Of a stretch of DNA of 64,000 bases, positions 2,011-53,733 are shown one piece after another. Made by a program: the position numbers and the translations under genes. Numbering within the stretch: the first letter of the stretch is position 1; each line of letters begins with the position of its first letter. Below the pieces are notes generated by a model. The model was not told the DNA's origin. It saw only the letters and a program-made list of their open reading frames with translations, and ran no database searches. The stretch spans positions 3,955-67,954 of the forward strand of contig JBDTME010000007.1 of assembly GCA_039934415.1 (NCBI GenBank), in the 5' to 3' direction. The stretch comes from Patescibacteria group bacterium. GTDB taxonomy: Bacteria; Patescibacteriota; Microgenomatia; UBA1400; PJMF01.

Positions 2011-3123
2011 CTAAAGAATAACTGAGTACTTCCCTCTTTCGCTGAGAATGATGCCTTTCAGCTCCAAAGCGCTCACAGCAGTAAGCAACTCACTCAGCAT
2101 CAGCTGTAATTCCTCAGCAATCTCATCACTACTCAAACTTTGCCCTAATAACAGCTCCAGTACCCTTTTTTCGGTCTCGGTCTCGGCCTGGCTCATAATG
2201 GCCTGAGTATTAATATTCCCTGATTTTTCACTCATTCTAGGAAAATAATCAATTAAGATATCTTGGGAGCTGGTTACTAGTTTTGCACCTATATTCACTA
2301 AGTCTTTCGTACCGTCAGAGTATTTTGAGGTAATCGACCCAGGAATTGCGAATACATCTCGCCCATACTCCGCCGCACAGCGTGCAGTAATCTTGCTCCC
2401 ACTATCTGCAGCTGCCTCTGTTACCAAAATGCCTTTCGACATTCCGGCAACGATTCGATTTCGTTGAGGAAATAAGCCACGAACAGGAGGTTGTGTAGGA
2501 AGATACTCTGTGATGAGTGCACCTCCTTTCTCCAAAAGAAGATGTTGTAACTTCAAGTGATATTCTGGAAAACAAAAATCGAACCCGTATCCCAATACGC
2601 CAACGGTATATCCATTAGCCTCAAGTGCAGCTTGGTGAGCCACTGCATCTACTCCATACATGAAACCAGAAATAATTTCGCACCCTTGTTGAACTAACTC
2701 AGTTGTCAGCAGTTTTGTCACCACTCGACCATAACTTGTTATCTGTCGCGTTCCCACCACAGCGATTGGCAGAGAGAATCTCTCTCTCAAAATTCCTTGA
2801 ATGAATAAAACAGGCGGAGCATCTGGAGCATGTTTCAGCAACGCCGGATATTGATCATCTTTCTTAAGCAAAACGGCTATATTTTTTTGTAACAGCTCTG
2901 CCTTCAATTTTTTTATTGAAAAGTTTTGGCGATGAAGAATGAAAACCTGTACGCTAACACGTAACAGGTTTAGTGCTTTGATCTCATTTTCAGATAAATC
3001 CCAAAATTGAAGTGGAGTTATCCCTACGAGATCTAAACGTTTTAACAACTCATTAAAGGTCATTACACCAATCCCAGGACACTCTAAAATTGCAATCCAG
3101 ATTAGTTGTTCATCAGTGATCAT
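2011..3123 (-). CDS. dprA: DNA processing protein DprA (Smf)
   Basis: 370 aa with a Rossmann-like DprA core (GVDAVAHQAALEANGYTVGVLGYGFD, IAVVGTR). Sits immediately upstream of topA in the conserved dprA-topA arrangement. Confidence 0.85.
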   Translation of the reverse strand: MITDEQLIWIAILECPGIGVMTFNELLKRLDLVGITPLQFWDLSENEIKALNLLRVSVQVFILHRQNFSIKKLKAELLQKNIAVLLKKDDQYPALLKHAPDAPPVLFIQGILRERFSLPIAVVGTRQITSYGRVVTKLLTTELVQQGCEIISGFMYGVDAVAHQAALEANGYTVGVLGYGFDFCFPEYHLKLQHLLLEKGGALITEYLPTQPPVRGLFPQRNRIVAGMSKGILVTEAAADSGSKITARCAAEYGRDVFAIPGSITSKYSDGTKDLVNIGAKLVTSSQDILIDYFPRMSEKSGNINTQAIMSQAETETEKRVLELLLGQSLSSDEIAEELQLMLSELLTAVSALELKGIILSERGKYSVIL

Positions 3124-3182
3124 TACGGTAGAGTACCAACCAATCCTTACAAAAACATGACATCCAGTCGATAAAAAGATGC

Positions 3183-4919
3183 TTATCGATGGTCTTTAAT
3201 CCATTCTAAAATCTTTAACGCAATTGGGCCTCCATCAGCAGATCCTTCCCTAAATGGCTTCACTTCATCACTTTCTACCAGAACGACGACTAAAATATTT
3301 TGTGGATACTGTTCTTTCACTTCCGTTTTTTCCAATCGTCCATTTTTTACCAACCGAATCGTCCGCGGTTGAGTATTAAGGTGGGTGAAACCAACAAACC
3401 ACCCGTGCGTTCTACGATGGCCGTTGTTATCAGCTGCACCGAACTCCGCCGTTCCTGTTTTACAAAATACTTTATTCTCTTCTTGATCATTCCAAGGAAA
3501 AAAAGGAAATGCAGTTCCACCTCTAGTACATACTTCTTTCAATCCTTCTTCGATAGTTTTCAAGTGATCCTGTGAAACGGAAATATCCTGACAGTGTCCA
3601 CTCGTTCCTTTGATCAATGTAGGGGCGCAAAGTTTTCCGCCATTGGCAAATAAAGTTAAGGATTGAAAAACTTGGACTGGGGTGACTAATAAATCACCTT
3701 GACCAATACCAAAGTGGTAGGTGTCGCCTAAATACCATTTTTCCCCTACCGCTTTTTCTTTCCATGCAGGATCTGGCACAATTCCAGATGCCTCAGCAGG
3801 CAACTCTATTCCGGTCCTCTTGCCAAAACCGACCATTCTAGCAATCGCTGCTAGCTGATTGGCACCTAACCACTCTGCTGCTTTATAAAAATAAATATCA
3901 TTACTGCGTGCAAGTGCACGAACCAAATTAATACTGCCTTCAATTCGACCATACTGTCGATAAAACCAGTTCCCATACTCAAATTCACCAACTTTTAAGG
4001 TACCTTGATCATCTACTTTTGTGTCTGCATCTACGGCACCATTTTCAAGCGCGCCTAACGCTGTAACCGGCTTAAAAACACTTCCAGGTGGATAACCTCC
4101 TGCCAAAGCACGGTTAAAAAACAATTTATTAGGATCTTGGAAATATGAAGCCAACTGTGTCTTTTTATTCTCATCGTCGGACTCATTCATTGGCGGTCGT
4201 GTGAATTGATTCGCATTAAAAGTAGGACTACTAATCAAACTCAGTACTTCTCCAGTACCAGGATCACCGACTAATACTGCTCCTTTTTGTCCTTTCATCA
4301 GGCCAAAAATGTACGCTGTGAGCTCGCCATCTATTGTTGTTTGAATATGCTGTCCAGAAACAGAGTTCTGCTCGCTCACCGTTCTGATAATTTCACCCTT
4401 TGCATTCGTTTCGTAAACTACTGCTCCATCCTGACCTTTCAACTCATCTTGAAACATCGCTTCCAATCCAACTTTCCCTATGACTTGGTTAAGTGCCAAG
4501 TTGGGATCTCTATCTAGATCTTCTTTGGTAATTGGACCTACATACCCAGTCACTTGAGATAATGCATCTGGGTAAATATATTCCCGATACTGATCAGTAA
4601 AAACTGAACTACTCGCAGTCGCCATTAGCTCCAAGGCTGTACTTTCATCAACTAAAGTCCTGTTACTATACAGACGATTTGGTGATTGGAGTTGATAAAA
4701 AACTGGTTTATTAAACACTAATGATTGTCCAAATCGATCAAACAAAATACCACGATCTGCTACAACTACTTTGTGAAAAAAACGATTGTTCTCTGCTGTT
4801 TGTTTGAGCACAGCTGTTTTGACAACCTGGAGATCAAACATCCGCAATGCCAACATACAAACTAATACACATGCCAGCGTGGGCATGATCCACATCCGTT
4901 TGGAATTCATTGCAGACAT
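3183..4919 (-). CDS. mrdA: Penicillin-binding protein 2 (elongation transpeptidase)
   Basis: 578 aa with an N-terminal TM anchor and a transpeptidase SxxK motif (GSVFKPVTA), plus SxN and KTG-like motifs (FCKTGTAE). Lies directly downstream of an mreB-mreC-mreD-like cluster. Confidence 0.8.
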   Translation of the reverse strand: MSAMNSKRMWIMPTLACVLVCMLALRMFDLQVVKTAVLKQTAENNRFFHKVVVADRGILFDRFGQSLVFNKPVFYQLQSPNRLYSNRTLVDESTALELMATASSSVFTDQYREYIYPDALSQVTGYVGPITKEDLDRDPNLALNQVIGKVGLEAMFQDELKGQDGAVVYETNAKGEIIRTVSEQNSVSGQHIQTTIDGELTAYIFGLMKGQKGAVLVGDPGTGEVLSLISSPTFNANQFTRPPMNESDDENKKTQLASYFQDPNKLFFNRALAGGYPPGSVFKPVTALGALENGAVDADTKVDDQGTLKVGEFEYGNWFYRQYGRIEGSINLVRALARSNDIYFYKAAEWLGANQLAAIARMVGFGKRTGIELPAEASGIVPDPAWKEKAVGEKWYLGDTYHFGIGQGDLLVTPVQVFQSLTLFANGGKLCAPTLIKGTSGHCQDISVSQDHLKTIEEGLKEVCTRGGTAFPFFPWNDQEENKVFCKTGTAEFGAADNNGHRRTHGWFVGFTHLNTQPRTIRLVKNGRLEKTEVKEQYPQNILVVVLVESDEVKPFREGSADGGPIALKILEWIKDHR

Positions 4920-36872: not shown

Positions 36873-37277
36873 CTAGACGTCTTCCTGATAATGCTTCCCG
36901 AGAAGGTGGTAGATACTGTGATCAATGTAGTAATTGATCAACTCATCAACGAGTTTATTTTTTTTGGCTGCTTCTTGAATTAAGACTGGATAACACAATA
37001 CGATATCACCGTAATGAGGGACAGCACCTTCTGGATTAGGAAAAGTTTTCCCTTCAGTTGGGTCGCGCTGCGTGAATGATAAGACATTTGTAGGGCCATC
37101 TTTTTCTCGTAACTTATTCAACTCTTTCATCTTCCGCTTCCCTACAATCGAGATATCAACCCAAGCCGAATTTATATGATGTTTATGAAAAGAATCCACT
37201 GCAGTTTTCCGCACCGCTTTTCGATCCACGATAAACCGCGAACCTACTGAAATATTGACTACAAAATTTTTTGACAT
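36873..37277 (-). CDS. ybeY: Endoribonuclease YbeY (rRNA maturation factor)
   Basis: C-terminal IDHSIYHLLGKHYQED matches the YbeY H..H....H zinc motif (HGxLHLLGYDH). The ORF-track N-terminal 16 aa translate the upstream terminator hairpin, so the start is moved to ATG 37277 (MSKNFVVNISVG). Confidence 0.7.
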   Translation of the reverse strand: MSKNFVVNISVGSRFIVDRKAVRKTAVDSFHKHHINSAWVDISIVGKRKMKELNKLREKDGPTNVLSFTQRDPTEGKTFPNPEGAVPHYGDIVLCYPVLIQEAAKKNKLVDELINYYIDHSIYHLLGKHYQEDV

Positions 37278-37311
37278 AATAAATGAGAACTTTATTTTAC
37301 ACCTAAAACCC

Positions 37312-37345
37312 AAAAACCCCGACATACATCGGGGCTTTTATTTTT
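37312..37345. terminator. Intrinsic terminator between rpsU and ybeY
   Basis: ccccga-cataca-tcgggg: a 6-bp GC-rich stem with T-runs on both flanks, so it is usable in both orientations. Confidence 0.6.
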
Positions 37346-37532
37346 TATACACTGCTTATTGAACATCTAAGATCAAGGTTTTATTCACAACCCCACTCTT
37401 CTATTTAGTGAATATTTAGAACTGAGAGATTATTTATAAAATGCTCAATCAAACATGTAACGTGCTGCAATCGAACGTAGTGAAGATTGCGGAACATTTT
37501 AAATAATCTTGAAGGATTAAATATTCATGCAA

Positions 37533-42010: not shown

Positions 42011-43717
42011 TTACTTTAGACGCTTCATCACCTCTTCTAATTCAATGACCTCACTGTTTTCCTCGTTTCTCTTTTTCCATTCCAATTTCTCACCATTTCG
42101 AGGTGAAGCAACTAAACGCACAGGAATACCAATCAAATCAGCATCAGCAAATTTATTTCCCGCTGATGTATCTCTATCATCCCACAATACTTCAACACCC
42201 TCTTTCTCAAATTGCTGATACACCTTTTCGGCAAACTCCTCAGCACCTTTCATTGAAACCAAGTGAACCTGAAACGGTGCAATCTGAGCAGGCCAAACCA
42301 TACCTTTGTCGTCGCCAAATTTCTCAGCAATAACACCCATTACTCGACTCGTTCCAATGCCATATGAACCCATGAAAATAGGTTGTTGTTGACCTTTTTC
42401 ATCTACAAATTGGTAGTTGAACGCCTTAGTAAACTTCACTCCCAAAGGGAAAATATTGCCAACTTCAGCAGCCTTAAATACCTCATACTCTTCACTATTT
42501 TCTGGGAACCGATCACCTTGTCGTGCGATTTTAATATCAAAAAACTCTTTAGGTTCCGGTATATCTCGACCAAAATTAATATTAATTGAATGATAGTCAG
42601 TCTTATTAGCACCACATTCAAAGTTTTTGCGACCACTCATCGACTCGTCCATGAAGATTCGAACAGAATCAGGCAAATTTAAAATACCTGCATAACCAAC
42701 TTCAGCGCTAGTCACTTTTTTTACGACTTCCGCTCGAGCTAAAGTCAATTTAGAAACGCCTGCTACTTTACACAACTTCTCTTCATTAATTTCGTAATCA
42801 CCCCGAACAGCTGCAGCAATGACGTCACCCTTATCAGTCTCAAATAAAATTGTTTTGGTCGTTTTATCTATTGAGATTTTTAAATACTCGGCCAGCTGGG
42901 CAACTCCAATAATCCCCTTACCTATTATATCTTCGCGCTCTTTTATCTCTTCAGAGCTATCGTCTATGGTTGGAGCCAGACTTGGAGCAATCTCACGATT
43001 GAATGCCAAATTTTTACTTTTGACATAAAAAACCGTATCCTCGCCTGCTTCGCAACGCGCTTGAAACTCATGAGAAAAATCTTTGGTGAAGTCACCACCA
43101 GAAGCTAGGACAACCATTGTAAACTCACCCAATCCAAGACGTTCAAAAGTTTTGGTGTAAGCATCTTTCGCAACTTCATAGTACTTTTTCAAATCCTCTT
43201 CGCTTGTATGAAAACTGTATAAATCTTTCATTCGAAATTCTCGACAACGCAGTAAACCTGACTTTGCGCGAGGTTCATTGCGAAATTTACTCTGGATTTG
43301 ATACACCGCAAATGGAAAATCTTTATATGATCCATTAAATTTTTGTGCCAAAGGCGTAACGACGTCTTCATGAGTGCAGTTGAGAATATACTCTGCATCA
43401 TTTTTGGCTCTAGCTACTTCATTCGCCGGCACCGTCTTCATTAACACATCAACAGTTTCCAATCGACCAGTCGTTTCCCACAATAATTTTGGCACGATCG
43501 AAGGCATTAGCACTTCCTGGCCAATCTTATCCATCTCTTCTCGAACAATGTCTTCAATTTTATGTAAAACGCGCAATCCTAACGGCAAAAAGGTATACAC
43601 CCCAGCCATAGTTTGATCAATAAAACCAGCTTGGATGAGCAAACGAGCGTTTTTTGATTTGATGTCACCAACATTTTTGTTTGTTTTAGTAAACATTTTC
43701 GAATACTTCATATACAT
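42011..43717 (-). CDS. proS: Proline--tRNA ligase (bacterial type with INS editing domain)
   Basis: 568 aa with class II motifs (FRNEPRAKSGLLRCREFRMKDLYSF motif 2; GSYGIGTSRVM motif 3) and a C-terminal anticodon-binding domain. Confidence 0.9.
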   Translation of the reverse strand: MYMKYSKMFTKTNKNVGDIKSKNARLLIQAGFIDQTMAGVYTFLPLGLRVLHKIEDIVREEMDKIGQEVLMPSIVPKLLWETTGRLETVDVLMKTVPANEVARAKNDAEYILNCTHEDVVTPLAQKFNGSYKDFPFAVYQIQSKFRNEPRAKSGLLRCREFRMKDLYSFHTSEEDLKKYYEVAKDAYTKTFERLGLGEFTMVVLASGGDFTKDFSHEFQARCEAGEDTVFYVKSKNLAFNREIAPSLAPTIDDSSEEIKEREDIIGKGIIGVAQLAEYLKISIDKTTKTILFETDKGDVIAAAVRGDYEINEEKLCKVAGVSKLTLARAEVVKKVTSAEVGYAGILNLPDSVRIFMDESMSGRKNFECGANKTDYHSININFGRDIPEPKEFFDIKIARQGDRFPENSEEYEVFKAAEVGNIFPLGVKFTKAFNYQFVDEKGQQQPIFMGSYGIGTSRVMGVIAEKFGDDKGMVWPAQIAPFQVHLVSMKGAEEFAEKVYQQFEKEGVEVLWDDRDTSAGNKFADADLIGIPVRLVASPRNGEKLEWKKRNEENSEVIELEEVMKRLK

Positions 43718-43720
43718 CTT

Positions 43721-44040
43721 TCTTTTCTTTGATTAATAATAACAGGTACAACAAAAAAAACCTCGTCTTCATCCACTACTCCGAAAACGGACTAATGAAC
43801 AAGGACGAGGTTTGCTCGTGGTACCACCTTGGTTTGTCTCAACGTCGCCGCTGAGATCTTTTCAACTGTCTTTGATATTCAACAACAGTGTAGCGTTTGA
43901 TGACCGGTGCTGGCGGAATGTGTTAGTACTGTGATGTCCACATCGGCTCTCGATTTTATCGATCAAGGGTTAGGAGCCCTTGCAAAGAAACTAAGTTCTT
44001 TGAAGCTATTCAATGAATATTGTACACCAAAAAATCACTT
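43721..44040 (-). promoter_or_regulatory. T-box riboswitch leader (tRNA-Pro-responsive) controlling proS
   Basis: Minus-strand RNA contains CAAGG-UGGUACC-ACGAG-CAAAC-CUCGU-CCUUG (plus 43800-43831): two 5-bp helices flanking the 7-nt T-box bulge UGGNACC (consensus AAUUAGGGUGGNACCGCG). Its 3' half overlaps a terminator, AACCUCGUC...GACGAGGUU followed by U8 (plus 43753-43812). Upstream there is a GAGAG element and a CCU-A candidate specifier. Confidence 0.75.
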
Positions 44041-44042
44041 GA

Positions 44043-44474
44043 TCAAGATCGCCGTCTCTTCTTGTCTCTTGATTGACCTCTTTGTTGAGTCTCAACAAGA
44101 TGCAACTCGTATTCATCTTGGACACCTGTTGGATCAATCTTCAACATTAAACCCTTTCTACCTGGCAATTGGTTAATGTAAGTTGAACGTAAAATCATGT
44201 CCCTAGCACGCCCAAAATCTGCGGATTTGATAATCAAACTGTCAACTCCTACATCCACAGTTACATCAACTTGGGCTCGAAACACAAACCGCATTCCTGA
44301 GGTAACTGCTATTGGCTGTTCCAATTCAGGGTGAAGTATTTCTCGATCTACCAGTAGTGCATAAATCAAGTTCGCCCAAGATACCATCCCAAAGCCATTT
44401 TTCTCAAAAGATGAACGAAAAAGTTCTCTTGGATCAACGGGTGATAGATCTCGTCCCTCTTCAATTTCTACCAT
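44043..44474 (-). CDS. Hypothetical protein, weak resemblance to ribosomal protein bL25/Ctc
   Basis: 143 aa. EILHPELEQ resembles the bL25 motif EITHADFQV, and VDVTVDVGVDSLIIKSADFGRARD resembles the Ctc C-domain FSVDVSGLDINDSLHIRD. Its position directly downstream of prs matches prs-ctc synteny. The N-domain appears truncated or degenerate. Confidence 0.35.
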   Translation of the reverse strand: MVEIEEGRDLSPVDPRELFRSSFEKNGFGMVSWANLIYALLVDREILHPELEQPIAVTSGMRFVFRAQVDVTVDVGVDSLIIKSADFGRARDMILRSTYINQLPGRKGLMLKIDPTGVQDEYELHLVETQQRGQSRDKKRRRS

Positions 44475-51639: not shown

Positions 51640-51905
51640 AAAGGAGGTCTAAACATCATTTTTTTATCGAGCGTGTGGCCCTACCCTACAATCCAACATT
51701 GTAGTCGGGAGACGAGGAAAAGGGATGATCTTGGCAATACCAAGATCGATCGAACCGTTTATCAGTCCAAATGATGAACGAGTATCTACGGAGACCCTTT
51801 GGGTGACTTGAACATCCACTCAAGACCTGCGATCAAACCTGTTTGTAAGAACAGCTCAAAGTCGCTCGTTTTTTCAAGAAGTCAGTCCTCTGACTTTTTT
51901 TTCCT
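51640..51905 (+). promoter_or_regulatory. Structured 5' leader of glmS; candidate glmS-ribozyme-like element with 3' terminator
   Basis: About 440 nt of non-coding DNA lie between rpmB and the true glmS start. It contains hairpins (CUACAAU-CCAAC-AUUGUAG; GAUCUUGG-CAAUACC-AAGAUC) and the motifs GACGAGG, AUCGAA and GGGUGACUUGAACA, which resemble the glmS ribozyme core/P4 as I recall it. An SD-like AAAGGAGG has no start codon after it. The element ends with a terminator hairpin. Confidence 0.3.
51878..51905 (+). terminator. Intrinsic terminator/attenuator within the glmS leader
   Basis: aagtcag-tcct-ctgactt followed by T9: a 7-bp stem with a 4-nt loop, plus-oriented, 56 nt upstream of the glmS ATG. 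Confidence 0.55.
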
Positions 51906-51960
51906 ATTATTGCTAGCTCTAATACACCTGATGTACTCACGTCATCGGAAAGGTTTTTGT

Positions 51961-53733
51961 ATGTGTGGAATTTTTGCAACTCTGAACGAACCCAAACATA
52001 ATGCTGCCCAGACCATCTTGAAGGGTTTAAAAACGTTGGAATACCGAGGGTATGACTCTTGGGGAATCTCGGTCATCGACTCGAATGAACAGATAAAAAC
52101 TCAGAAAAAAATTGGGAAAATTGGTGAAGGTACTACCAGTTTGCCTGAGTCGGCGATTGGCATTGGTCACACTCGATGGGCTACACACGGAGGCGTCACT
52201 GAGCAAAACGCCCATCCACACCTCGATTGTTCTGGCAAACTCTCTCTGATTCACAACGGCATCGTGGAAAATTATCAGCAGATAAAAACTCAACTGATAA
52301 AAAACGGTCATCGATTCATTTCAGAAACAGATACGGAAGTAATCGTTCATCTGATAGAAGAAACCATGAAGACAGCTTCATTCGAACAGGCAGTCATACA
52401 ATCATTCAAACGGTTAGAAGGAGCGAATGCCATTCTCGTCCTCGATGCTGCTTCAAGAACTGTAATTGCAGTCAAAAATAGCTCTCCATTGTTAGTGGGC
52501 AAAACTGCCACGTCGATTTATTTTTCTTCCGACGCGACTGCATTCATTCCCCTTACTGATCAGATCTACATTATGGAAGACGGTGATGTAATTATTGCCC
52601 ATGACAAAGAGATCCAGCGATACTCAGTGAAGAGCGGCCAGGTACTGCCACTTGAATTTAAAAAGATGGAACTATCCTCCAGACAAATTGATAAAGGAAA
52701 GTTCGCTCATTTTTTAATCAAAGAAGTTCATGAACAACCATTCATCTTGAATCAGTTGGCAAAAACAAAGTTTTCGACCTACCAACAACTCATTCACAAC
52801 ATTCAATCAGCGCCTCAGGTCGTGCTATTAGGTTGTGGCAGCGCATATCACTGTGCGTTGTTTGGAACCTATTTTTTTAATGATGCTGGCATCCTTGCTT
52901 TGGCATTTCAGGCGCATGAATTTGTGGCATTTGCTCCGAACTTGAAACCCGGTGCAATTGTGATTGCGATCTCACAAAGTGGCGAAACAATCGATACTTT
53001 GTTGGCATGTCAGGCTGCCAAAAAAGCTGGGGCAAAGTTGATCGGTCTGATCAACTCTCGCGGGTCGAGTCTTGAACGATTGGTAGATCACGCTTTTCCA
53101 GTTGGAGCAGGACCAGAAATAGCCGTCGTTTCAACCAAAGCATTCCTGGCACAAGTCAGCGCGCTCTTTTTGCTTTCGCAGGTATTAAAGGAAAAAGACT
53201 CTACACAAGGAGCTGAACAATTACAGGTGCTCGCTGACGCCATCACTGCTTTTTTGGAAAATAAAAAAGTACAAAAACAGATTAAAACATTGGCAAAAGA
53301 GCTCGTCGTTGAACCACAGTTGTTCGTCATCGGAAAAGGTCTAAATTATCCAGCAGCGTTGGAAGTAGCACTTAAAATTAAAGAAACAACCTATCTTCAT
53401 GCTGAGGGCTTTGCTGCTGGAGAATTAAAACATGGAGTACTCAGTTTGATTCAGGAAGGAACTCCTACAATCGTACTGACAAGTCAGGATGAACTCATGC
53501 AAGATACTTTCTCAAATGCAATCGAGATCCAATCGCGCGGCGGGAGAATCTTCAGTTTTTCACCAACTGTCTTTGCACAGGCTGACCTCAATATCAGGTT
53601 GCAGGATGTTGGCAAGCTGAATGCTGTGTTTAACATTGTGGTGTCACAACTACTTGCCTATGAACTCGCGTTATTGAAAAAACTCGATCCGGACAAACCC
53701 AGGAATTTGGCTAAAAGCGTTACGGTAAAATAA
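51961..53733 (+). CDS. glmS: Glutamine--fructose-6-phosphate aminotransferase (isomerizing)
   Basis: MCGIFA... gives an N-terminal nucleophile Cys directly after Met. There is a GATase type 2 domain and two SIS domains (GCGSAYHCALFG..., ISQSGETIDTL), and the C-terminus ends ...KSVTVK. The ORF-track start at 51799 is an upstream in-frame extension through the leader. Confidence 0.9.
   Translation: MCGIFATLNEPKHNAAQTILKGLKTLEYRGYDSWGISVIDSNEQIKTQKKIGKIGEGTTSLPESAIGIGHTRWATHGGVTEQNAHPHLDCSGKLSLIHNGIVENYQQIKTQLIKNGHRFISETDTEVIVHLIEETMKTASFEQAVIQSFKRLEGANAILVLDAASRTVIAVKNSSPLLVGKTATSIYFSSDATAFIPLTDQIYIMEDGDVIIAHDKEIQRYSVKSGQVLPLEFKKMELSSRQIDKGKFAHFLIKEVHEQPFILNQLAKTKFSTYQQLIHNIQSAPQVVLLGCGSAYHCALFGTYFFNDAGILALAFQAHEFVAFAPNLKPGAIVIAISQSGETIDTLLACQAAKKAGAKLIGLINSRGSSLERLVDHAFPVGAGPEIAVVSTKAFLAQVSALFLLSQVLKEKDSTQGAEQLQVLADAITAFLENKKVQKQIKTLAKELVVEPQLFVIGKGLNYPAALEVALKIKETTYLHAEGFAAGELKHGVLSLIQEGTPTIVLTSQDELMQDTFSNAIEIQSRGGRIFSFSPTVFAQADLNIRLQDVGKLNAVFNIVVSQLLAYELALLKKLDPDKPRNLAKSVTVK

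Follow-up and report, generated by a model that had tools for sequence, protein, structure and literature searches.

Results

A T-box leader upstream of proS

The window, that is, the whole stretch of 64,000 nucleotides (nt) of contig JBDTME010000007.1 from a Patescibacteria group bacterium that was analysed here, carries on its minus strand the gene for prolyl-tRNA synthetase, proS, preceded by a leader that is very probably a tRNA-Pro-responsive T-box controlling proS by transcription attenuation. An earlier note on this DNA had named proS as the regulated gene, and the downstream open reading frame (ORF; 42011-43717, minus strand) indeed matches the NCBIfam proline--tRNA ligase family TIGR00409 with a score of 462 bits (cutoff 307). 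The encoded protein is 100% identical to P0001, a protein of 566 amino acids (aa) that carries the NCBI name proline--tRNA ligase (Patescibacteria group bacterium). A promoter-like site precedes the leader (Table 1), and transcription is predicted to start at ~44012, ~5 nt 5' of the first helix (P1). For comparison we used 12 related leaders from metagenomes and from metagenome-assembled genomes (MAGs) of the Candidate Phyla Radiation (CPR), given below by locus number, eight of which were found through ProS similarity and not through the loop pattern. All 12 lie upstream of proS, present CCY and a following purine in an apical loop, and share a UGGU bulge and a terminator.

The 3' half of the leader is textbook. 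Positions 43831-43800 of the minus strand read CAAGG-UGGUACC-ACGAG-CAAAC-CUCGU-CCUUG, with a 7-nt bulge between antiterminator helices A1 (CAAGG/CCUUG) and A2 (ACGAG/CUCGU), exactly as the earlier note had described, and this standard UGGUACC discriminator together with a competing terminator upholds its identification of a T-box. The long overlapping terminator with its U8 tract, which had also been called, is likewise present and folds at -33.1 kcal/mol (z = -8.1; none of 200 shuffles equals it), compared with -8.4 kcal/mol for the antiterminator folded alone. The 5' strand of the terminator overlaps the 3' strands of A2 and A1, with CUCGUCCUUG as the common segment, and the helices are mutually exclusive. 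The energies of these two overlapping structures differ as expected and therefore support attenuation.

A hairpin followed by a U-run forms the 3' end of all 13 leaders, the window's included. In the window the terminator ends 35 nt 5' of the proS start codon and leaves the ribosome-binding region uncovered, and ~370 nt separate it from proS in L063 and L064; because the terminator is clear of the ribosome-binding region in this way, we regard the expression platform as transcriptional. A switch acting on translation initiation, of the kind known from short-Stem-I T-boxes of Actinobacteria, would agree with what has been published on these classes (III and IV), which "mostly regulate translation initiation" (PMC10482949). 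However, what competes with the antiterminator is a long hairpin, rich in G+C, with a U8 tract after it, and this, together with the distances from the ribosome-binding region and the hairpin and U-tract ending every leader, makes a translational switch highly improbable here. The ~370-nt insert between T-box terminator and proS in the two closest relatives, L063 (2125-2500) and L064 (1235-1602), of which the window has none, contains an ORF of 62-65 aa without family match and the conserved sequence GGGWCUCACGCG..GCAGCAAUGAAWCCCUUGAGGUG.

Table 1. Features of the proS leader and its surroundings, in the order in which they are transcribed (positions are those of the window)
Feature	Position	Strand	Sequence or pairing	Basis or remark
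Promoter-like site	44019..44046	-	-35 TTGATC 44046-44041, 16-nt spacer, -10 TACAAT 44024-44019	Consensus scan
P1, 5' strand	44003..44007	-	AGCUU, pairs with GAGCC 43949-43945	Basal helix of the Stem I domain
P1a, peripheral hairpin	43983..44002	-	CAAAGAA-CUUAGU-UUCUUUG	Unrelated sequence in some relatives, absent in others
P2, specifier hairpin	43964..43982	-	CAAGGG (CUCCUAA) CCCUUG	Apical loop 43976-43970, CCU 43974-43972, A 43971
P3, small hairpin	43950..43962	-	UCGAU-AAA-AUCGA	Between P2 and P1 3' strand
P1, 3' strand	43945..43949	-	GAGCC	Adjoins Stem II, zero-length linker
Stem II	43917..43944	-	GAUGUG 43944-43939 / CACAUU 43922-43917; 16 nt enclosed	Rfam model Stem II alignment
Stem IIA with F-box-like sequence	43899..43916	-	CCG...CGG; CGGUCAUC	Rfam alignment, covariation
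Candidate Stem IIB pseudoknot partner	43892..43894	-	GCU	Possible pairing with AGC of the IIA loop
Extra linker hairpin	43865..43889	-	ACUGU...ACAGU	Between IIA/B and Stem III
Purine run and Stem III	43837..43863	-	GAAAAG 43863-43858; UCUCAGC-GGCGAC-GUUGAGA 43856-43837	Rfam alignment
Antiterminator	43800..43831	-	A1 CAAGG/CCUUG, bulge UGGUACC 43826-43820, A2 ACGAG/CUCGU	Rfam posterior near 1
Intrinsic terminator with U8	43753..43812	-	AACCUCGUC...GACGAGGUU, hairpin 43812-43759, U8 43760-43753	
proS, regulated gene	42011..43717	-		TIGR00409 match; second ATG at 43711 likely the true start

A proline specifier in an apical loop

A candidate specifier, CCU-A, had been proposed and is found at 43974-43971 (minus strand), upstream of proS. 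The loop that holds it reads CUCCUAA in the window, L063, L064, L023, L027, L007, L059, L061 and L062, UUCCUAG in L008 and L021, AUCCUAA in L014 and AAUUCCCG in L004. All leaders thus have the loop core U-CCY-purine in common, which narrows to YUCCUAR in the ten leaders of the junction class described below. CCU is the reported proline specifier of the Bacillus proBA/proI T-boxes (PMC3858371). On the side of the discriminator, the bulge is UGGU in 13 of 13 leaders and calls for A73, in line with the suggestion of the earlier note that the bulge U would pair with this base; A73 is present in the tRNA-Pro (anticodon UGG) of the related locus L020, which is a relative's tRNA and the only tRNA-Pro in 56 related loci.

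Within the loop CUCCUAA, the specifier might instead be UCC, for serine, or CUC or CUA, for leucine, and UCC is in fact as conserved as CCY across all the loops listed. Yet the gene is always proS, which CCY matches, and CCY alone has a purine after it in 13 of 13 leaders, in keeping with the T-box rule. CUC is not conserved, since UUC and AUC occur in its place. Bacterial tRNA-Ser carries G73, whereas UGGU calls for A73. In addition, CCU is already known as a proline specifier from the Bacillus leaders cited above, and we consider a serine or leucine specifier extremely unlikely.

The Stem I domain is a specifier hairpin on a junction

In the window the Stem I domain is 63 nt long and consists of P1, P1a, P2 and P3 arranged as a four-way junction. 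The specifier is presented by P2, a hairpin of 6 base pairs (bp) with the 7-nt apical loop CUCCUAA (fold -7.9 kcal/mol). The window and nine related leaders make up this junction type, in which P1 encloses P2 and side hairpins are optional on the 5' side (P1a) and the 3' side (P3). Minimum-free-energy folds of the isolated domain contain P1 together with P2 in eight of these ten leaders, and in all ten the 3' strand of P1 is contiguous with the 5' strand of Stem II. Both helices vary in sequence: P1 is AGCUU/GAGCC in the window, AGUUU/AAACU in L027, AGCGU/AUGCU in L059 and (C)UACU/AGUA(G) in L007, while the stem of P2 occurs as CAAGGG/CCCUUG, UUCUAG/CUAGAA, UGCAGG/CCUGUA, GACAGG/CCUGUU and others. 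P1a is present in L064, L027 and L007/8/21, and absent from L063, L023 and L059/61. The position of P3 is held by hairpins of other sequence in L063, L023, L059, L061 and L007/8, with none in L064. The remaining three leaders, L004, L014 and L062, are of a different type with a textbook kink-turn (K-turn), e.g. GC-GAU-GA-AGGGG[loop]CCCCU-GA-GC.

The K-turn consensus could not be fitted to the junction type, in which the nucleotides beside P2 are Watson-Crick paired and the junction strands are either paired or unconserved. At the sequence level, no arrangement of C-stem, 3-nt bulge and tandem G-A could be reconciled with the covariation of P1 and P2. The AGAGA/AGVGA motif of an AG bulge was found nowhere in the leader, and no motif of the distal-loop type was found 5' of Stem III, the single one lying in Stem III itself; nor was an elbow-binding distal platform found. 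A long Stem I, which in canonical T-boxes carries an internal specifier loop, AG bulge and distal loop, is excluded because a promoter or -10 element lies directly 5' of P1 in the window and in six relatives and because these motifs are missing. In the relatives (L004, L007, L008, L014, L023 and L027), the -10-like hexamers were identified by eye, at a comparable short distance 5' of the first helix; they also led us to reject a long Stem I located further upstream. The folding of Stem I and specifier, which the earlier note had put forward as a check, is therefore confirmed in part: Stem I does fold, yet what forms is a short hairpin whose apical loop contains the specifier, and not a long Stem I.

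This layout is also the reason why the leader escapes annotation. Nothing was reported here by a default Rfam scan of the window. With reporting by E-value, RF00230 matches 43975-43798 (minus strand) at 33.7 bits against a gathering score of 93 (E = 8.3e-6 over 601 bases, 8.9e-4 over the whole window versus all 4227 families), more than would be expected by chance. Over Stem III and the antiterminator the alignment is near-certain, over the F-box and Stem II it is plausible, and 74 Stem I positions are deleted. The score is low because these 74 model positions are missing, and standard annotation misses the leader because the score falls below the gathering threshold. Those of the related leaders that were scanned score 28.9-70.9 bits, all below the threshold of 93.

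The same match bears on the label "canonical" or "textbook" that had been given to the whole leader, with RF00230 as the proposed check, and that holds for the 3' half alone. A canonical Class I (tyrS-type) T-box would have a full-length Stem I with K-turn, specifier loop, AG bulge and distal loop. In its favour, RF00230 aligns with the discriminator, with Stem III, with the F-box region and with a helix like Stem II, and cmscan even places a K-turn, UGA...GAG, on UUGAUCGAU..AUCGAGAG. However, the score and the 74 deleted positions speak against such a T-box, as do the promoter ~5 nt before P1 and the lack of both an AG-bulge motif and a distal-loop motif 5' of Stem III. A K-turn at the cmscan position (UUGA-UCGAU..AUCGA-GAG) was rejected: it would turn the 3' strand of P2, a helix strongly backed by covariation, into a bulge, and its C-stem would be unpaired. 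We also rejected a k-junction-like K-turn formed by the GA dinucleotides that flank P3, as their register is not fixed and they are not conserved across the class, being missing in L023, L059 and L061. Likewise, the GAGAG element that had been compared to a GA (K-turn) motif is present, at 43951-43947 (minus strand), but comparative analysis resolves it as the 3' strand of P3 running into the 3' strand of P1. A canonical Class I T-box is thus scarcely credible as a description of this leader.

Stem II, Stem IIA/B and Stem III

The loop enclosed by Stem II contains a conserved GGACAUC on its 5' side and ACUAA on its 3' side, at the position that the S-turn occupies in other T-boxes. In relatives the helix occurs as GAUCUG/CAGAUC, GAUUUG/CAAAUC, GGCGUG/CACGUC and GAUGGG/CCCGUC. 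A local hairpin, GAUG-UGGA-CAUC, was considered as Stem II and rejected, in that L063, L027 and L023 retain the long-range pairing of the GAUCUG/CAGAUC type and lose the local one. The middle pair of Stem IIA is flipped in the window (C-G) with respect to the G-C of relatives (CGG..CCG). Stem IIB is clear in relatives at the matching offset (GCAAG/CUUGC, GCUGG/CCAGC, GACU/AGUC). The position of the extra hairpin in the linker is conserved in all junction-class leaders and in L062; in L059, L061 and L062 this hairpin has an internal loop, AAUC/UAGAG, which in L062 is GUAGAGA.

Compensatory changes support the helices

Covariation was assessed in an alignment, called A2 and distinct from the antiterminator helix of that name, of ten junction-class leaders, which was trimmed by hand to seven helices without gaps. 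Standard pairs occupy 96.2% of its cells, versus 72.7% in shuffles and at most 48% with slid partners, and 25 of its 34 pairs show compensatory changes, versus a shuffled mean of 15.6; not one of 500 shuffles reaches the observed value on any measure. P1 (helix 1 of the alignment) has four of five pairs compensatory and 90% of cells paired, Stem II (helix 3) has 98% of cells paired, Stem IIA (helix 4) covaries, Stem III (helix 5) is compensatory in all five pairs, and the antiterminator helices A1 and A2 (helices 6 and 7) in seven of nine. RNAalifold, applied to untrimmed MAFFT alignments, independently recovered P2, Stem II, IIA and Stem III, with compensatory changes in five of the six pairs of P2 and three of the six of Stem II. 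Near P1a, an insertion that varies, MAFFT misplaced the 5' strands, and a leave-one-out covariance model for the decoding module was given up for this reason. The comparison with proS leaders of relatives that had been proposed for this locus has thus come out in favour of the T-box, with the layout recurring in 12 other CPR loci and compensatory changes between them.

Distribution of the leader among relatives

A protein scan with ProS of species-representative genomes yielded 57 loci, whose ProS is most like that of Patescibacteria MAGs of the Microgenomates type (Gottesmanbacteria, WWE3, Roizmanbacteria), several MAG labels being plainly unreliable. Seven of the 57 have a T-box upstream of proS (L004, L007, L008, L014, L021, L023, L027). 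Among relatives from the protein database, both L063 and L064 (85% and 83% ProS identity) have a T-box, and two others at 73% and 70% identity have none. A pattern scan of metagenomes with GGCTCCTAACC N120-150 GGTGGTACC gave five matches, of which three are real leaders (L059, L061, L062) and two, L058 and L060, were discarded as G+C-rich chance matches.

The T-box is patchily distributed. It is lacking before proS in L001-L003, L005, L006, L065 and L066, and at 62-73% ProS identity the relatives are without a T-box or have only a short intergenic region, whereas it is present in others that are further removed (43-61%), a distribution that would therefore reflect repeated loss or transfer of the leader. 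Because so many close relatives do without it, the T-box appears dispensable in the group, and the leader of the window might be a decaying, non-functional remnant in a reduced genome, with proS expressed constitutively or controlled by the terminator only; the low Rfam score would fit such decay. Nevertheless, all helices keep their pairing through compensatory changes although ProS of these loci is only 43-85% identical to that of the window, neither the loop YUCCUAR nor the bulge UGGUACC varies, and an intact terminator is retained. Judged from the sequences, this conservation of pairing, loop and bulge indicates purifying selection on the structure, and a decaying remnant is very unlikely.

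L027 is the sole case among the 12 leaders in which another gene, encoding a tRNA-binding domain, sits between the T-box and proS. The locus (2326-4257) consists of the T-box (loop CUCCUAA), a 112-aa ORF with PF01588 (2637-2975) and a short-type proS. Because both genes lie downstream of a proline T-box, the tRNA-binding protein would be co-regulated with the synthetase.

A T-box-like discriminator was also seen before a different synthetase gene. In L012, a WWE3 MAG, AAGG-UUGGUACC-UUCUAC..GUAGAA-CCU, followed by a terminator with U7, lies on the minus strand at about 2390-2600, upstream of a ValRS-like gene (a valS leader) and ~135 nt past a -10 box. This leader gave no Rfam match at E <= 1, and no confident parse of its 5' half was obtained. 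Its discriminator suggests that other divergent, short T-boxes may exist in CPR bacteria.

Other candidate regulatory RNAs in the window

Two further weak Rfam matches were noted outside the proS locus. Directly 5' of glmS, at 51659-51879 (plus strand), lies a sequence that resembles the glmS ribozyme with 34.2 bits (E = 2.5e-4), a little below the gathering score of 37. The glmS ORF spans 51799-53733, and its real start is placed near 51961 because the family match begins only at residue 55. This is probably a second genuine cis-regulatory RNA below threshold. A weak match to the 'rimP leader' at 37277-37371 (minus strand; E = 0.09, 34.3 bits with a gathering score of 47) has at its centre a GC-rich hairpin with a U-run. 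The ORF that it overlaps (36873-37325) encodes YbeY and not RimP, and the match is therefore most likely just a terminator.

Discussion

The case for a T-box that controls proS through transcription attenuation consists of sequence elements, of mutually exclusive helices, of the conservation and covariation of both, and of the link with proS. By homology with characterised T-boxes, we infer that tRNA is bound, that Stem II takes part in binding and that readthrough into proS is the regulated outcome. In the proposed mechanism, transcription would start near 44012 and the first 63 nt would fold into the four-way junction P1/P1a/P2/P3, so that the apical loop of P2 offers CCU, and then A, to the anticodon of tRNA-Pro. 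Stem II, through its GGACAUC/ACUAA loop, and Stem IIA/B may then clamp the codon-anticodon helix, by analogy with the Class III ileS T-boxes, and such a clamp could offset the absence of an elbow-binding platform. If the tRNA is uncharged, its 3' ACCA would pair with the UGGU of the bulge and stabilise the weak antiterminator (-8 kcal/mol), allowing readthrough into proS. If it is charged, the stronger terminator (-33 kcal/mol, U8) would be expected to form and transcription to stop near 43753.

Several points weigh against this reading. According to reviews, transcriptional T-boxes as a rule depend on the elbow contact to capture tRNA quickly (PMC7583486), and it is just this contact that the leader would have to do without. 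An S-turn in Stem II is suggested by its position and by the resemblance to ACUA/GGA, these two features being all that speaks for it, and Stem IIB has in the window only 3 bp, indistinguishable from chance. The covariation figures come from an alignment in which P1 and the registers of the helices were chosen by hand, a procedure that favours pairing, and its ten sequences amount to about 5-6 independent lineages. The relative's tRNA-Pro with anticodon UGG would face CCU with a U-U at the third specifier position, and no tRNA genes were found within the 64-kb window.

T-boxes were sorted into four classes in a 2023 paper (PMC10482949), and the closest known type is Class III, or ultrashort Stem I, represented by the ileS leaders of Nocardia farcinica, Mycobacterium tuberculosis and M. 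smegmatis (PDB 6UFM, 6UFG). In Class III, described for N. farcinica ileS, a short Stem I lacks the elbow platform, the specifier lies in a 5-6-nt apical loop and Stem II is required (PMC10482949). The window leader has in common with this class the short Stem I without the double T-loop elbow platform, the apical-loop specifier, Stem II at a zero-length linker, a IIA/B element (IIB being a candidate in the window) with an F-box-like sequence, Stem III and the UGGN bulge discriminator (PMC10482949, PMC7583486, bioRxiv 10.1101/2023.02.28.530422). The two differ in setting: whereas Class III is described for ileS in Actinobacteria with a Shine-Dalgarno sequestrator, and a 2023 preprint has all ultrashort-Stem-I T-boxes regulating ileS (bioRxiv 10.1101/2023.02.28.530422), here the gene is proS, the organism belongs to the Patescibacteria/CPR and the platform is an intrinsic terminator. 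With 7 nt in the window, or 5 nt if C-A or U-G loop ends close, the apical loop compares with the 5-6 nt published for Class III. Moreover, in the sub-lineage of the window a three- or four-way junction takes the place of the K-turn on which Stem I would be based, a K-turn that the sister CPR leaders L004, L014 and L062 keep.

With the Class I T-boxes of RF00230 (B. subtilis tyrS; Bacillus proBA/proI) the leader has in common the T-box sequence GGUGGUACC, helices A1 and A2, the competing terminator, the purines before Stem III, Stem II, IIA, the F-box, the CCU proline specifier and transcription attenuation. In contrast to them, it is without a long Stem I, an internal specifier loop with S-turn, an AG bulge, a distal loop and the K-turn consensus, and its linker 5' of Stem III contains an additional conserved hairpin. 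The glycine T-boxes of Class II (B. subtilis glyQS) resemble it in transcriptional control, in a matching discriminator and in a reduced domain set. The reduction, however, goes in opposite directions: glyQS is without Stem II but has a long Stem I and its elbow platform, and the window leader has Stem II but no platform.

These comparisons raise the idea that CPR bacteria have a T-box sub-class of their own, with an apical-loop specifier hairpin and Stem II on a three- or four-way junction, no elbow contact and co-transcriptional termination, a proposal whose chances we judge to be even. A search for papers linking T-boxes with CPR, Patescibacteria, Saccharibacteria and related names found none, in a literature of which the coverage was incomplete, so that an earlier description elsewhere is possible. 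If the sub-class is real, CPR T-boxes would be systematically overlooked by the standard Rfam model, and an annotation gap is already apparent, as the curated threshold of 93 passes over both the window (33.7 bits) and its relatives (29-71 bits).

That a T-box sits on an aminoacyl-tRNA synthetase gene is unsurprising; it is the architecture that bears on which parts of a T-box are dispensable. A 2020 review asks whether any T-box works without a K-turn (PMC7583486), and the leaders described here make this question and that of the elbow contact testable with RNAs of ~250 nt. The leader also points to tRNA-sensing RNA regulation of an aminoacyl-tRNA synthetase in the Patescibacteria/CPR, in which gene regulation is almost unstudied. 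If functional, the proposed sub-class would be a natural counter-example both to the rule that transcriptional T-boxes need a long Stem I platform and to the rule that T-boxes containing Stem II need a K-turn.

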